From positions 2,720,001 to 2,784,000 of the forward strand of contig OZ241986.1 of the NCBI GenBank assembly GCA_965204375.1: a stretch of DNA of 64,000 nt, given 5' to 3'. The notes below the pieces were generated by a model. That model was not told the DNA's origin. It did not search any database and worked only from the letters and a program-made list of their open reading frames with translations. The translations under genes were made by a program, and so were the position numbers. Source of the DNA: Candidatus Latescibacterota bacterium. Lineage in GTDB: Bacteria; Latescibacterota; UBA2968. Below, one piece after another: positions 320-5,191 of this stretch (position 1 is the stretch's first letter; each line of letters starts with the position of its first letter).

Positions 320-1318
320 TCATCCCATCAACGCATTATACCCCATCCCCATCACCTCCTTGACGTGTTCCAGTGTGCGTTGCCCTTCAATACGCGCCCT
401 CGAACCACCCAAATTCAAAATATCGCGCACCAGATCGGGCTGTTCTTCAAACCCCTTGCGGCGTACCCGAAACGGCGTCATAAAATCGTTCAACACATCT
501 GCCAACGCGCCTTTACACGTCGTACAGCCAACCGATCCACTGCGACATGCCCTTGCCACCTGCTCGGCATTCTCTTCATCGAACACCTCTCGATAGTGAA
601 ATGCCGAACACACATCGGGATTTCCCGGATCAGTTGCCCGCACCCGCCCCGGATCAGTAACCATATTCATCACCTTTGCACGCACAGACGCTTCTTTATC
701 CGACAAATCAATAGCATTGCCATAACTCTTCCCCATCTTACTCTGACCATCCGTACCCTTCAAGCGCGTGCCATAAACGCCATCGGGAATGGGAAACACC
801 TCACCATAAATCCGATTAAATCGCGCAGCCACTTCCTGCGCCAGTTCAATATGGGGTCTTTGATCTGGACCCACTGGCACATATCGCGGACGAAAAAGCA
901 AAATATCCGCCGCCTGAGACACCGGATACCCCACAAAACCGTAAGGCACTCGATTCCCCAACCCCATCTTACCCATCTCTTCCTTAACCGTTGGATTCCG
1001 CAACAAACGCGGCAACGTCACCAAATTGGAAAAAATCATGGTTAACTCTGCCAGTTGCGGCACCTGTGATTGCAAAAAACAAACGCTTTTTTTCGGATCA
1101 AAACCCACCGCCAGATAATCCAACACCATTTCCCTGACGTGACGCTCCAGATCCTCTGTCCGATCCCGATGCGTCGTCAGCACCTGATAATCGGCAATCA
1201 TAAAAAAACACTGAAACTCATCCTGCATCTCAAACCGATTCTTCAACGCCCCGACATAATGTCCCAAATGCATTCTACCCGTCGGGCGATCACCTGTTAA
1301 AACAATTGTACGACTCAT
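320..1318 (-). CDS. trpS: Tryptophan--tRNA ligase
   Basis: MSRTIVLTGDRPTGRMHLGH (HIGH motif), YPVSQAADIL, VPVGPDQ and KMGKS (KMSKS motif). ATG at 1318 follows RBS AAAGGA. Confidence 0.96.
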   Translation of the reverse strand: MSRTIVLTGDRPTGRMHLGHYVGALKNRFEMQDEFQCFFMIADYQVLTTHRDRTEDLERHVREMVLDYLAVGFDPKKSVCFLQSQVPQLAELTMIFSNLVTLPRLLRNPTVKEEMGKMGLGNRVPYGFVGYPVSQAADILLFRPRYVPVGPDQRPHIELAQEVAARFNRIYGEVFPIPDGVYGTRLKGTDGQSKMGKSYGNAIDLSDKEASVRAKVMNMVTDPGRVRATDPGNPDVCSAFHYREVFDEENAEQVARACRSGSVGCTTCKGALADVLNDFMTPFRVRRKGFEEQPDLVRDILNLGGSRARIEGQRTLEHVKEVMGMGYNALMG

Positions 1319-1359
1319 CTCTGTTCCTTTCTTTGAACGATTAAAAATCCATAATTTCC

Positions 1360-1391
1360 AAAAAAAAGCGCGCCACCTTCCGGTAGCGCGC
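1360..1391 (-). terminator. Attenuator 2 terminator upstream of trpS
   Basis: Minus strand reads GCGCGCTACC-GGAA-GGTGGCGCGC followed by 8 T. Confidence 0.88.
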
Positions 1392-1504
1392 GGCACAAAC
1401 AAAGATCGCCAGATATCCGGTGGTGGACATACATCTCCCATTGCGCCTGTCCACCACCAGCGTCCGCCAACATTAAACAGCTCTGTCATCGCACTCAAAA
1501 ACAT
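1360..1504 (-). promoter_or_regulatory. Trp leader attenuator 2 (WWW leader, open in frame into trpS)
   Basis: ATG at 1504 or 1489 leads to TGG TGG TGG at 1459-1451. GGTGGTGGACA pairs with TGTCCACCACC (1:2). CCACCACCGG pairs with CCGGAAGGTGG (antiterminator). The terminator is at 1360-1391. Confidence 0.8.
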
Positions 1505-1518
1505 CGCATACCTACCAC

Positions 1519-1550
1519 AAAAAAACCGCCGTCAAAAAGCCGACGGCGGT
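1519..1550 (-). terminator. Attenuator 1 terminator
   Basis: Minus strand reads ACCGCCGTC-GGCTTTTT-GACGGCGGT followed by a T-run. Confidence 0.88.
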
Positions 1551-1581
1551 CAATTCAGAATTCTCAAATAAATACAATCCG

Positions 1582-1692
1582 TCAGCAAACCCACACAGCA
1601 ACACACCACCAACCGCAGACGGTCTCAGACACACGGAGAGCCAGCACCCTATCGGGCGTCGCATCAGTCAAAATGTGATCGTGCATAATCAT
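1582..1692 (-). CDS. Trp-rich leader peptide 1, 36 aa (MIMHDHILTDATPDRVLALRVSETVCGWWCVAVWVC)
   Basis: Translated by hand. RBS GGGAG lies 6 nt before the ATG. WW..W sits near the stop, and GCTGACGG/CCGTCGGC antiterminator plus terminator follow. Confidence 0.78.
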   Translation of the reverse strand: MIMHDHILTDATPDRVLALRVSETVCGWWCVAVWVC

Positions 1693-1720
1693 AACAAACT
1701 CCCGTGATATATCGCCGATA

Positions 1721-1766
1721 AAAATAACGACTTCAATACCCCAAGTCAAGCCGTTTGATCTTCTTT
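1721..1766. repeat. Copy A of degenerate 46-bp direct repeat, containing a minus-strand sigma70-like promoter (TTGACT-17-TATTTT)
   Basis: 40/46 identical to 5192-5237 by manual alignment. Confidence 0.8.
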
Positions 1767-3237
1767 AGCTCACGAACCGGAACGAGTAGAGCTTTGCCGA
1801 TCGCATCACGACGCGAAGCCGCAGCGGCCCCCGATCCGTGGGGATCCGGCGGCCGGCCCCCTGCCACGACACGCCTGCCTTGATTGCATTGGCGACAATC
1901 GTCTCGCACGTCTTCAGCGTGTAGCCTTCCACGGGGCGCCCCTCCTCGTCCTGCAGCTCGACAAGCAGCCAGCCGCCCCCGCCACAATCTACATTCAACT
2001 CGAGCGCCTGACCGTCGAACGCCAGCGGCGGAGTCACAAACTCTCCGCCAGAGAGAGACGCATCCGCCGAGACAAAACCGTCCCGCCTCAGGATCGCCCG
2101 GAACAGCCCAGTGTTCCAACCGTCGCGCACCTCATCATTGTGCCGACTTCCCCGCCCCGAATAGTAGATCCACATCTCGGTCTCGGTAAGCACAGGCCAG
2201 ACATTGGCCATCACCATACCACCCGATGGCCCCCCATCCAGCCCCCGGCGGATAAACGGCTCCCGGTCTCCCTGACGCGACCATATAATCCCGTCACGGC
2301 TCGTGAAGAGCCGGACATCCATTGTGGCCGGGAAATCAGATGCTTCCCAGTGGTAATAAGCGGCGGGCATCATAAAGTACGCATCATCCGCCTCGGGATG
2401 CTTATAGACTGCGTTCGTGTAGTAATCGACCTGCGGCCTATCCATTGACCGGGGAGGCAGAGGAGCTTCCAGGTCCAGCGCATCCCCTTCCAGGACGATC
2501 AGCGTGGGCTGCGACCAGGTCTTAAAGTCGGGCGACGTAATCCGGCCAACGGAGCGGTACCGCTTTCCGAGCTTCATTTCCGCCGCCTCGTCCCGCCGCT
2601 GGGTCTCATGCACCCGCGTATAGCCGACGTAGAGATCCAGGCTGTCATCCCAAAAGAAAACATTCTGAGTATCGCACATCTGGTTGGGCGGATTCGGCTG
2701 GCCCTCATCATACGTCCAATGGATCCCGTCGGGTGAATGCATGGCCCAAAGCCCCGGCAGAACACCGGCCTCGATCTCATCATCCCTGGGATAGTACTTC
2801 GACCAGAGCCGGTAGCGCGAATCGGCGGGCGCACGTTCGTCTATATAGACCGTCGCGCCCTGCATACTCTGACGCTCATCCAGCGGGGCAACGATATTGT
2901 TGGCAGTGCTGCCCTGGAACGTGACGAGGTGCATCTCTGGCTTCTGCCAGGAGACCCCGTCTTCGGACTCTGCATAACAGAGACGGACCGCCCCTTCCTG
3001 CGGACCTCCCGATTTCATCTGTGCGCCGTACCAGAGCCGGAAGTGCCGCTCCCCTTCCCGGATCACCGTATTGTATCCCCCAATCCCGAGCTTCTCCCAC
3101 GGCTTGTCCGCCCGGAGCACCGGCTCGGGGGACTGCAAAGGCGGATTCATACGGAGGTTGACGCCGGAGGCGCGATCGAAGAAACGCGCATCGATGAAAA
3201 GCTGCTTCCGGCTCCCGACATGGACTGTAGCGGCCAT
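1765..3237 (-). CDS. Beta-propeller glycoside-hydrolase-like protein (GH32/GH43-type fold), function unknown
   Basis: Repeated Asp-box-like motifs (SEDGVSW, SPDGIHW, SPDFKTW, SRDGIIW), RRDGFVS and a C-terminal beta-sandwich. Start 3237 follows RBS GAAGGGG. Confidence 0.65.
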   Translation of the reverse strand: MAATVHVGSRKQLFIDARFFDRASGVNLRMNPPLQSPEPVLRADKPWEKLGIGGYNTVIREGERHFRLWYGAQMKSGGPQEGAVRLCYAESEDGVSWQKPEMHLVTFQGSTANNIVAPLDERQSMQGATVYIDERAPADSRYRLWSKYYPRDDEIEAGVLPGLWAMHSPDGIHWTYDEGQPNPPNQMCDTQNVFFWDDSLDLYVGYTRVHETQRRDEAAEMKLGKRYRSVGRITSPDFKTWSQPTLIVLEGDALDLEAPLPPRSMDRPQVDYYTNAVYKHPEADDAYFMMPAAYYHWEASDFPATMDVRLFTSRDGIIWSRQGDREPFIRRGLDGGPSGGMVMANVWPVLTETEMWIYYSGRGSRHNDEVRDGWNTGLFRAILRRDGFVSADASLSGGEFVTPPLAFDGQALELNVDCGGGGWLLVELQDEEGRPVEGYTLKTCETIVANAIKAGVSWQGAGRRIPTDRGPLRLRVVMRSAKLYSFRFVS

Positions 3238-3307
3238 GAGATACCCCTTCCTATTGTCGATGCTAACTACGAAAAGTTTGCCTGACTCCGATCCATCCTG
3301 TACATCC

Positions 3308-4255
3308 CTACTCACACGCAAGTGCGGCCAACATGGCCTTGATATACCCAACTGAATAGGCGAGCGCGTGGGTGTTGCCGGCAGGCCCATCCCCTTCAAG
3401 CGTCGGATAGTGGTCGGGGTTCAGGCAGCCGTCGTAACCCACCCGCTTCAGTTCGCGCAGGATCTTGTACATGTTCATGTCCCCATCGTCCAGCAGGACC
3501 TCCTCGAACGCACCGGCGGTTGCAAAGCTCGCCCGCACGTTTCGAAAGTGGACCTCGAAGAGACGTCCCTTCCGTCCGTAGTTGTGAATTTCGTCCAGAA
3601 CGAGTGGAAGTCCTCCGGCCTCCGCGCGTGTCCCGCAACAGTAGAGGTAGCCGACACACGGGTTCGGAAAAGCGTCGATCACCCGGTGGAATCCCAGCCC
3701 GCCAAAGAGCGCATCCTGCGTCGGCGGGTCGGAGGGATGCATCATCAGTCTGACGCCTGCGGCTTCCGCGATAGGCACGAGCCGTTCGTAAGCCGCACAG
3801 ACGCGTCCCCACCGCTGCTCTCGCACTGCTATATCCGGCGGCTCATCCCCTTCTGCGAGTGACAGACTGTCCCCTCGAGCCGGGTATCCGCCGCGGTGCG
3901 ATGCCCGATAGCGTCCAATCATCCAGGGATCCGTGGAATAGTCGAAGTGCACCCGTCCAAGAGGATAGCCCGCTTCGCCAAGGACCCGGACGGACTCGCA
4001 CGCGGCGTCGAGTTCCTCCTCAGCGCCATCATCTTCGTCCATGAACCGCTTCGATAGACCGGGCAAACTGATGCGATTCACCTGCAGACCCCAGGAATGA
4101 ACTCGTTTCTTCATTTTTAGTGCCTCGTCCAGATCGAAGACGCCACGGTCATCGGTCGGCAATGGCAGGGCATCGACGCAATCGACGCCCAACTGGGTCA
4201 ACTGGCGCAACGTCGCGTCGGACGGGTCTTGACACCAGGTAGCTACTTTGATCAT
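3308..4255 (-). CDS. Mannonate dehydratase (UxuA)-like protein
   Basis: Motifs HPSDPP, VHFRNV, EVLLDDGDMNM, PDHYP and AYSVGYIKA. Confidence 0.8.
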   Translation of the reverse strand: MIKVATWCQDPSDATLRQLTQLGVDCVDALPLPTDDRGVFDLDEALKMKKRVHSWGLQVNRISLPGLSKRFMDEDDGAEEELDAACESVRVLGEAGYPLGRVHFDYSTDPWMIGRYRASHRGGYPARGDSLSLAEGDEPPDIAVREQRWGRVCAAYERLVPIAEAAGVRLMMHPSDPPTQDALFGGLGFHRVIDAFPNPCVGYLYCCGTRAEAGGLPLVLDEIHNYGRKGRLFEVHFRNVRASFATAGAFEEVLLDDGDMNMYKILRELKRVGYDGCLNPDHYPTLEGDGPAGNTHALAYSVGYIKAMLAALACE

Positions 4256-4292: not shown

Positions 4293-5138
4293 CTAACCCC
4301 CTTCGGGATGGCGACCACCCAGCAATTGAAGCAGGCGATCGCTGGCAGACGCCCGCGCATCTTCGGGAATGGGCACCCGGTTCATCCATCCGAATCGCCG
4401 GAACGCCCAATCAACCGCGTACTGCGACTGCATCAGGTACCGCGTGCGATCGGACCTGTTTGGCGCCCCCCGGTGCCAGCACTGCGGATCCTGCACGTAG
4501 ATATCCCCCGCCTTGCAGAAAACAGATACGGGACCTTGCTCCTCGAACTCCGGATTCTCCTGACTGTTCGGATCCTTGCCCGAAAGATGGCTTCCGGGGA
4601 CGTACTGTGTGGGACCGTGTTCGATCTGCTCGATATCGCTCAGTGCCATTTGCACGGTAATCCAGAGCACCGGCGGTCGAATCCGGGGGTCGTGGCGGGG
4701 CACGCTCTCCGGGACGGGAAAGTGGACTGCGCCATCCACGTGCCACCTTTCGATCGCCACACCGGACTGGTTTCGCAGCACGTTCTGTCCACAGAAGCGG
4801 CAATTGGGTCCGACGATCGCCTCGGCGAGGCTCAGGATCGGTTCCCGAAGGAGCATCTCTCTGAAGATCCCGTCCAGCGCAATCGTATTCCGCAGGATAA
4901 ACGGTCGATCCCCCTCGCCGTGCATTTGCACGTACCGGCGATCGTGCAAGCCGAGGTCTTCCTCTTCCGCAAGCAAAGGATCGTCGAGAAACGCATCCGT
5001 TCGGTCCCGCAACGCCTGCATTTCACCTGCTTCGAGCACGCCGGGGATATGCACGAAACCGTCTCTGTGGAAGCAGTCGATGATCTCCCGGGTGGTCTTT
5101 TCTCCAAATGGCTCGCCGGATTGGATCGGACTCGACAA
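4293..5138 (-). CDS. Phytanoyl-CoA dioxygenase (PhyH) family Fe(II)/2OG dioxygenase
   Basis: Motifs FHRDGF, WHVD (HxD), GPTQYVPGSH and WHRG. TTG start follows AGGAGG. Confidence 0.85.
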   Translation of the reverse strand: MSSPIQSGEPFGEKTTREIIDCFHRDGFVHIPGVLEAGEMQALRDRTDAFLDDPLLAEEEDLGLHDRRYVQMHGEGDRPFILRNTIALDGIFREMLLREPILSLAEAIVGPNCRFCGQNVLRNQSGVAIERWHVDGAVHFPVPESVPRHDPRIRPPVLWITVQMALSDIEQIEHGPTQYVPGSHLSGKDPNSQENPEFEEQGPVSVFCKAGDIYVQDPQCWHRGAPNRSDRTRYLMQSQYAVDWAFRRFGWMNRVPIPEDARASASDRLLQLLGGRHPEGG

Positions 5139-5191
5139 TGGAATCCTCCTTGAGATGTACGTCCAAACGGAACCGAAACGTATCATCGATG

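Follow-up and report, generated by a model that had tools for sequence, protein, structure and literature searches.

Two tandem tryptophan-codon leader units, predicted attenuators of an auxiliary tryptophanyl-tRNA synthetase gene in Candidatus Latescibacterota

The 64,000-nt stretch of a Candidatus Latescibacterota bacterium genome analysed here (contig OZ241986.1, positions 2,720,001 to 2,784,000; hereafter the window) carries on its minus strand, at window positions 1319-1764, a promoter-like site and two tandem leader units rich in tryptophan (Trp) codons, ahead of a gene for a tryptophanyl-tRNA synthetase (TrpRS) paralog, trpS2. The cassette is bounded by the stop codon of the upstream gene at 1765 and by the trpS2 ATG at 1318. 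Both units have a Shine-Dalgarno (SD) site, an ATG, a run of Trp codons, competing hairpins and an intrinsic terminator. We consider it likely, judging from sequence, that they are two ribosome-mediated Trp leader-peptide transcription attenuators acting in series on one transcript. An original prediction for this DNA had proposed two complete Trp attenuators in tandem upstream of trpS. Every helix that it named is present, and our comparisons support its interpretation of two separate ribosome-dependent attenuators in series, with qualifications given below for unit 2 and for the target gene.

Unit 1, the upstream member, occupies 1582-1703. Its SD sequence GGGAG (1703-1699) sits 6 nt ahead of an ATG (1692-1690) that opens a 36-codon open reading frame (ORF; 1692-1582). 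The peptide, MIMHDHILTDATPDRVLALRVSETVCGWWCVAVWVC, ends in GWWCVAVWVC, with Trp codons at 1611-1606 and 1593-1591 and a TGA stop at 1584-1582. Region 1 (CCGTCTGC, 1622-1615) lies immediately 5' of the Trp codons, and region 2 (GCTGACGG, 1586-1579) holds the leader stop. The 1:2 helix between them was correctly foreseen, with one flaw: seven of its eight positions pair and one is a T/T mismatch. Region 2 can also pair over 8 bp, including one G-U, with CCGTCGGC (1546-1539). This third region is the 5' arm and loop of the terminator (1519-1551), a hairpin at 1551-1524 (ACCGCCGTC / GACGGCGGT) followed by U7, the T-run reaching down to 1519. Sequence and terminator scan thus bear out unit 1 as predicted, from the ribosome-binding site and leader peptide to the 8-bp antiterminator and the U-run. 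When folding is run with the Trp codons masked, as if covered by a stalled ribosome, GCUGACGG pairs with CCGUCGGC in a 2:3 hairpin of -14.3 kcal/mol, which can form before the 3' arm of the terminator is made. When the stop codon is masked, the terminator alone forms, at -20.2 kcal/mol. With its stop codon inside region 2, unit 1 is a predicted attenuator of classical design.

Unit 2 follows closely, its ATG (1504-1502) lying 14 nt past the unit 1 T-run and behind an SD-like GGTAGG (1516-1511); leader and regions 1 and 2 together span 1417-1516. Three consecutive TGG codons (1459-1451) fall within region 1 (1460-1448), and region 2 (1429-1417) is decoded as Pro-Pro-Pro at 1426-1418. The two regions form a helix of 13 bp in the fold, with a duplex energy of -24.1 kcal/mol. 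The terminator (1360-1391) is GCGCGCTACC-GGAA-GGTGGCGCGC, a hairpin at 1391-1368, followed by T8 at 1367-1360. Region 2 finds its antiterminator partner at 1383-1373 (CCGGAAGGTGG): CCACC-A-CCGG pairs with CCGG-AA-GGUGG, a stretch that starts in the last bases of the 5' arm, crosses the loop and takes in five bases of the 3' arm, its first ones. If the transcript is cut at GGUGG, this conformer has an energy of -16.9 kcal/mol against an optimum of -17.0, within 0.1 of it. All the named parts of unit 2, from the ATG to the U8, are therefore in place. What the prediction of two complete attenuators had missed is that the WWW frame has no stop up to the trpS2 ATG and is in frame with trpS2, making a single ORF of 394 codons (320-1504). 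Completeness in the classical sense thus holds for unit 1, and not for unit 2, which has no conserved stop.

The arrangement exceeds what chance would give, as seen in the folding of the leader and in the conservation of covariance-model matches in other genomes. The 403-nt leader has a folding z score of -3.06, with none of 100 shuffles folding as well, and its minimum-energy fold contains both terminators and the unit 2 1:2 hairpin. The terminator scan by itself is not significant, with 3 terminators found and 4.0 expected from shuffles.

A covariance model of unit 2, built from 23 related loci, was searched in 151 genomes sampled across the phylum. It matched 34 of them, exactly once each, at E values from 1e-43 to 1e-6 in the other genomes; matches fell in families f1 (25/29), f2 (7/19) and f4 (1/2), and the remaining searched families of this sample gave no match. 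A TrpRS paralog lies directly downstream in nine of ten more distant loci inspected, the exception being G030, which has none. In family f2 the unit has the main trpS on one side and, on the other, a second and shorter TrpRS-like gene. When the model was run on 21 TrpRS loci of other phyla and five f2 loci, the one match was in f2 (L025, from G030). Within the genus, mean column identity of unit 2 is 84%.

The terminator of unit 2 covaries strongly. Across 33 genomes it is 99.7% paired, and six of its ten pairs show changes on both sides; on all five measures the observed values were matched by none of 500 shuffles, and slid controls are 33-58% paired. Covariation is free at the base of the terminator, whereas the top (ACC-GGAA-GGUGG) hardly varies. 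In the same 33 genomes the 1:2 helix keeps an invariant UGGUGG/CCACCA core, as expected because one strand must encode Trp. An invariant top over a covarying base fits a chain of constraint that passes from the Trp codons to region 2, from there to GGUGG and finally to the terminator top. Indirectly, the near-invariant top thus supports a second pairing partner for these bases. As a separate observation, a purine-rich GGGAG/GGAGA motif in the loop of the 1:2 hairpin (window 1440-1436, minus strand) is conserved across families while the residues that it encodes differ, and the helices that we tested do not account for it.

Unit 2 is far more widespread, reaching f1, f2 and f4, than unit 1, which is confined to part of f1. 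Unit 1 occurs in 25 of the 33 unit 2 loci examined: a pattern search found 23, and a covariance model added G089 and G023. The carriers are all 21 examined genomes of the window's genus and four genomes from three other f1 genera; covariance-model search did not find the unit in f2 (0/19) or f4 (0/2). Matches in other genomes had E values from 1e-31 to 1e-7. All 25 carriers keep the SD site, the ATG, a WW or WWW run, a stop in or beside region 2 and a CCGCCGUCGG...CCGACGGCGG terminator, and their peptides, as compiled, all end in V-S-x-x-V-x-G-W-W(W). The stop, TGA or TAA, holds its place in or beside region 2 across four genera. The terminator is 99.1% paired in the 25 sequences, with two of nine pairs changed on both sides (for example G-C to A-U in G089), and the 1:2 helix is 89.1% paired with three of seven pairs so changed, in an alignment fitted to the model. 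Unit 1 stands immediately next to unit 2 in most carriers; spacing between the units ranges from 14 to about 90 nt in same-genus genomes, and in two other genera (G024, G119) an intact unit 1 is likewise close to unit 2. We also note a GUGUGUCUG block 5' of the unit 1 Trp codons that is conserved over four genera and is not accounted for by the tested helices. In four loci (L002, L007, L013 and L015) an insertion of about 75 nt (ATCGCGGATGG...GAACCCTTCC...) sits directly after the terminator 1 T-run; similar sequence follows terminator 2 in G089 and appears in one metatranscriptome contig (run X15), and its core is not found in the window genome beyond chance. It may be a small mobile repeat that settles beside terminators.

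The antiterminators required a different approach, since their pairing register shifts between genera and makes column counts unsuitable; we replaced these with duplex-versus-shuffle tests on each sequence. In unit 1 the 2:3 register is GCUGACGG / CCGUCGGC in the window's genus, GGCCGAC / GUCGGCC in G024 and GGCCAACCG..ACGG / CCGU.CGGUUGCC in G119 and G023. Region 2 was compared with each sequence's own terminator 5' arm and loop in nine representatives, and the shuffles as good, out of 300, numbered 0, 0, 0, 0, 1, 4, 23, 1 and 5. In eight of the nine, then, 0-5 shuffles did as well, even though both partners vary between genera. The corresponding test in unit 2, of region 2 with the top of the terminator, gave 0, 2, 3, 17, 2, 8, 0, 1, 0, 26, 14, 21, 116 and 28 of 300 in 14 representatives; the complementarity beats shuffles (at most 8 of 300 as good) in eight of them and is strong in f1 and f4. 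By column, pairing in the unit 1 2:3 helix is 94.5% over 25 sequences, and in the two outer antiterminator helices of unit 2 it is 97.0% and 92.5%, the unit 2 values coming from an alignment that includes one foreign row. Near-optimal folds of this genome's unit 2 include a further, inner antiterminator helix (UGGCG/CGCUA), which is only 77.6% paired across genomes; we dropped it as a general feature.

The reading frame of unit 2 is conserved as far as region 2. Of 33 loci parsed for translation, 31 were clean and the other two were mis-parsed by the pattern. The ATG is in frame with the Trp run in the 31, lying 27-69 nt upstream when it stands beside an SD-like site; in three loci the parser picked an in-frame ATG farther out, at most 204 nt upstream. 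SD sites are clear in distant members, such as AGGAG in L090 and GGAGGA in L087. A run of WW, WWW or WWWW is present in 33/33 aligned loci. The distance from this run to region 2 (CCACCACC / CCNCCNCC) is either 30 or 33 nt in 31/31 clean loci, so changes in loop length are multiples of three, and region 2 is decoded Pro-Pro-Pro in every one of these loci. The N-terminal residues and the peptide of the hairpin loop vary freely between genera. Downstream of region 2 the frame is unprotected: a 4-nt insertion alters it in several same-genus genomes, and the stop has no fixed place, lying up to 32 nt ahead of the T-run, inside the terminator loop, 8-162 nt past the T-run or more than 1000 nt past it. 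The window genome and G005 have no stop at all before trpS2. With the stop so variable, the in-frame fusion with trpS2 appears incidental, and the absence of a fixed leader stop is, on these comparisons, a real property of the unit 2 family. A stop placed so that the terminating ribosome would mask region 2 is found in unit 1 and not in unit 2. We therefore regard unit 2 as an atypical member of the classical leader-peptide attenuators that would work in a similar way.

We propose a model where one transcript, starting from the promoter-like site near 1749-1721, passes two attenuators tuned to charged tRNA-Trp before it reaches trpS2. When charged tRNA-Trp is low, a ribosome stalled on the two adjacent Trp codons of unit 1 would cover region 1, leaving region 2 (GCUGACGG) to pair with the terminator 5' arm and loop, and transcription would read through. 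When it is ample, a ribosome at the stop inside region 2 would let the terminator form, ending the transcript near 1519. In unit 2 the WWW codons would double as region 1, with region 2 (CCACCACCGG) as their complement, and a free region 2 would pair with the terminator top (CCGG-AA-GGUGG). At ample charged tRNA-Trp the moving ribosome, slowed on Pro-Pro-Pro, would mask region 2 while the terminator forms; we attribute the masking to the translating ribosome itself because the ORF has no fixed stop. What we infer from this anatomy is that ribosomes stall, that termination responds to Trp, that one transcript runs through both units and that Pro-Pro-Pro acts as proposed. Since the units stand in series on one transcript, read-through would be the product of two probabilities, giving a low basal level and a steep response. 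The tandem thus probably provides a tighter, lower-leak switch for trpS2, as the original prediction had suggested. Terminated unit 2 transcripts would mostly carry no in-frame stop, for which E. coli pyrBI offers a precedent.

The braking step may be taken further. Pro-Pro-Pro is slow to translate and depends on EF-P. If region 2, the complement of the Trp codons, is held in frame by selection so as to read Pro-Pro-Pro(-Asp/Gly/Ser), a polyproline brake could, at high charged tRNA-Trp, hold the ribosome over region 2 just until the terminator has formed. Unit 2 would then be a stop-less attenuator with a brake in place of the leader stop and, together with unit 1, a two-stage sensor. We offer this as a tentative and rather doubtful proposal, which draws on the frame conservation of region 2. 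If true, unit 2 would integrate Trp-tRNA charging with EF-P and proline status, and the free wandering of the stop codon, here into trpS2, would be explained. A two-stage sensor of this kind would in many relatives control TrpRS-like proteins that lack the KMSKS loop, hinting at a non-canonical function of the paralog.

Several observations weigh against the model of two serial attenuators. By column, neither antiterminator shows changes on both sides of a pair, in unit 1 over 25 sequences or in unit 2, and their support is complementarity, not covariation. Comparison of relatives otherwise supports the model: both units keep SD sites, in-frame ATGs and WW or WWW runs while other parts of each peptide drift, and both terminators are maintained by compensatory changes. 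RNAalifold, applied to the post-stall segment of unit 2, returned a small GUCC/GGAU hairpin and the terminator top, and no antiterminator. The complementarity in unit 2 is weak in family f2 and in genera g2 and g3 (14-116 of 300 shuffles as good), and the covariance-model alignments lean towards the modelled structure, having been fitted to it. The full terminator 2, at -21.7 kcal/mol, is also more stable than its antiterminator, at about -17; the choice in unit 2 must then be kinetic, as in classical attenuators. RNA contigs carry no readable starts, ends or strand and have no bearing on termination.

A further point of this kind is that the ORF of unit 2 overlaps its terminator in most lineages, where a tightly coupled ribosome could suppress termination and give control of the opposite sign. 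Coupling of the pyrBI type would have a close ribosome block the hairpin and a stall at WWW cause termination, so that trpS2 would be on at high charged tRNA-Trp. Such coupling would agree with an ORF that overlaps the terminator in most loci and with an antiterminator that lacks covariation and is weak in some lineages. It would leave the 13-bp 1:2 helix, kept throughout with its invariant core, without a role, and the invariant terminator top over a covarying base suits a second pairing partner. In f2 (L095, L096) the ORF ends before or within the terminator, unit 1, which would share the transcript, has control of the classical sign, and a spare synthetase that is on when charged tRNA-Trp is abundant makes little physiological sense. 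We consider this coupling quite unlikely. Unit 1, for its part, might be a relic from a small gene lost in this genus, an extra terminator without selected double sensing, leaving unit 2 alone to attenuate trpS2. Two genomes lend this some substance and also count against the serial model, because unit 1 may first have served another gene: an ORF of about 126 codons in G089 (L091) and one of about 150 codons in G023 (L089) lie between the units. In these genomes unit 1 thus heads another gene too, and either unit can stand alone; the direct tandem may trace back to a gene between them that was lost or gained. The wider spread of unit 2 points the same way. Against a relic stand the intact, closely spaced unit 1 in 21/21 same-genus genomes and its retention near unit 2 in G024 and G119; the ORFs of G089 and G023 are unrelated by eye and look more like insertions than an ancestral gene, and a relic on the same transcript would act in series anyway. 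We find a relic unlikely.

An RNA that no ribosome reads, whether T-box-like, riboswitch-like or of the TRAP type, would make the Trp codons incidental to a GGUGG/CCACC helix. The high nucleotide conservation of unit 2 and the resemblance of GGUGG to T-box cores would suit such an element. An Rfam scan of window 1200-1900 at E up to 10 returned no leader family, only five weak, unrelated matches to small RNAs and microRNAs, mostly on the terminators alone. The T-box model (RF00230) did not match in the trpS2 leader; the single T-box of the genome (G000:C1:5442492-5442744, plus strand, 97.4 bits) lies outside the window. A search for TRAP (Pfam PF02081) matched the Bacillus subtilis control and nothing in the present genome, which is 96% complete. 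The SD site and in-frame ATG are kept while the peptide between ATG and Trp run varies, and the hairpin loop changes length only in multiples of three, both of which speak for translation. An element of this sort is highly improbable.

The serial attenuators would control an auxiliary protein. The trpS2 product (P0001, 332 aa; 320-1318, minus strand) matches Pfam tRNA-synt_1b at E 1.4e-61, and its closest solved relative is 2a4m, 'Tryptophanyl-tRNA synthetase II' (E 5.7e-88). The genome has a second TrpRS gene (G000:C1:1069511-1070500), to whose product P0001 is 46% identical; this housekeeping copy starts about 20 nt past the preceding ORF and has no leader. With a leader before trpS2 only, the attenuators would control an auxiliary TrpRS-II-like paralog and not the sole trpS; the predicted target was right in being a TrpRS gene. 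Full-length TrpRS2 has four cysteines at residues ~236-268, spaced C-x20-C-x6-C-x2-C, which are missing from the housekeeping copy and from 2a4m in the aligned stretch; the spacing presumably resembles that of the iron-sulfur TrpRS of Thermotoga. In 11 of 21 same-genus genomes (L013-L023) the attenuator-headed paralog is an in-frame deletion form of 245-248 aa, without residues ~196-279, which hold the KMGKS loop and the cysteine motif; both attenuators and an intact frame are kept. In f2 the paralogs behind unit 2 (L095, L096) have degenerate HIGH and KMSKS motifs. From these deletions and degenerate motifs, the regulated protein may be no working synthetase in many lineages.

In design the units resemble the E. 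coli trpL leader and those of his, leu, thr, pheA and pheST: each has a short ORF, adjacent codons for the amino acid presumed to be sensed, 1:2, 2:3 and 3:4 helices that are predicted to exclude one another and an intrinsic terminator, and unit 1 also shares a stop codon placed to mask region 2. There is no sequence relation, as no Rfam leader matched. Here, by contrast, two units stand in series, the target is a synthetase paralog and not a biosynthetic operon, unit 2 lacks a fixed stop and pairs its region 2 with the loop and 3'-arm top of the terminator, and the host belongs to a candidate phylum. E. coli pyrBI resembles unit 2 in a leader ORF that runs through the terminator, but it senses UTP via polymerase pausing, with no amino-acid codon run and no 1:2/2:3 competition, whereas unit 2 keeps its 1:2 helix on the Trp codons.

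Attenuators ahead of TrpRS genes have a parallel in Streptomyces. Vecchione and Sello are said to have worked experimentally, in 2010, on S. coelicolor trpS1, with an attenuator before the auxiliary copy. Attenuators of S. avermitilis trpS2 and S. lividans trpL2-trpS have been predicted or annotated (PMC1262725, PMC8079986), and the S. lividans leader has a single Trp codon (MMTRTCTQLWRAA; PMC8079986). As predicted for our locus, these have a leader-peptide attenuator before a TrpRS gene; they are single units, whereas we find two (WW..W and WWW) in an unrelated phylum. The original prediction knew of no described tandem attenuator for trpS. In full-text literature we too found no homotypic tandem Trp leader-peptide attenuator, one in which both units answer to the same signal, within a partial coverage such that older comparative-genomics papers could hold a precedent; single trpS attenuators, as just noted, have been described. 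No tested feature of trpS2 points to antibiotic resistance. The two ORFs of the Salmonella mgtCBR leader reportedly sense different signals, ATP and proline. This leader has been described as bearing 'tandem attenuators', two short ORFs that each steer stem-loops and transcription into the coding region (PMC3641672). Its mechanism is not known to be one of two serial intrinsic terminators, whereas each unit here has Trp codons and an intrinsic terminator of its own. Closer in logic are tandem T-boxes and riboswitches, serial cis sensors of one signal from which a sharper response is expected; these bind tRNA or ligand directly, whereas the sensor here would be the translating ribosome, and no T-box lies at the locus.

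How the two units relate to one another is less plain. That they share no obvious similarity and are no simple duplication had been part of the original prediction; weak reciprocal cross-matches soften this, with unit 1 of G119 scoring 17 bits (E 0.003) against the unit 2 model and unit 2 of G010 scoring 31.6 bits (E 2e-5) against the unit 1 model. Either a design in common or remote shared ancestry could lie behind these matches. In family f3, 12 of 64 genomes contain weak matches to the unit 1 model (27-34 bits). Of seven f3 loci fetched, six (L111-L116) share a Thr-run leader ORF that ends in a stop and is accompanied by a terminator; the ORF of L111 has 10 Thr codons (MISAMLTVASAHSLSGFPSGPTATTTTTTTTTTMCAG) and stands upstream of a gene with tRNA_SAD, class II core and HGTP anticodon domains, of the ThrRS type. 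The seventh, L117, has an Ile-rich leader (MRQPLSIIIEIIRDASRWRRRRVL, with IIIEII) and a terminator upstream of a class-I I/L/M/V synthetase gene. With such leaders before synthetase genes, leader-peptide attenuation looks like a habit of the group and seems common in the phylum. A genome-wide scan for short WW-containing ORFs with terminators gave six matches including unit 1 and no convincing Trp leader elsewhere, in a crude search whose SD pattern is too strict for unit 2. We found no work on attenuation in Latescibacterota in the literature, with the same partial full-text coverage.

The promoter-like site ahead of unit 1 (TTGACT-17 nt-TATTTT, 1721-1749, minus strand) is a prediction of the promoter scan, with 9/12 matches; the scan of the locus gave no second such site between the units. 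Its TTGAC and GTCGTTATTTT blocks are retained across same-genus loci, even with a divergent upstream flank. This flank varies in some same-genus genomes, and the promoter-like block moves together with the cassette. In the window the upstream neighbours on the minus strand are long ORFs of 544, 315 and 297 aa (1765-3399, 3308-4255 and 4293-5186). Sequencing runs that contain the stretch are sponge, coral and marine metagenomes, along with six metatranscriptome runs with small shares. In four metatranscriptome runs the assembled contigs are of related strains only, with pieces over 1360-1511 and ~1555-1800; contig ends near 1577-1604 match neither terminator and are uninformative on termination.

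The textbook mechanism of leader-peptide attenuation is familiar mainly from Proteobacteria and Actinobacteria and has, to our knowledge, always been described as single units. The cassette ahead of trpS2 would add a homotypic two-stage attenuator, a ribosome-based counterpart of tandem T-boxes and riboswitches, as well as an attenuator without a fixed leader stop codon. The locus is a natural test of what serial attenuators do to a dose-response. It also draws attention to a family of attenuator-controlled TrpRS paralogs, some of them without the KMSKS loop. In a broader context, leader peptides would be seen to control the synthetase genes for Trp, and probably for Thr and Ile, in a candidate phylum of uncultured sponge and coral symbionts.

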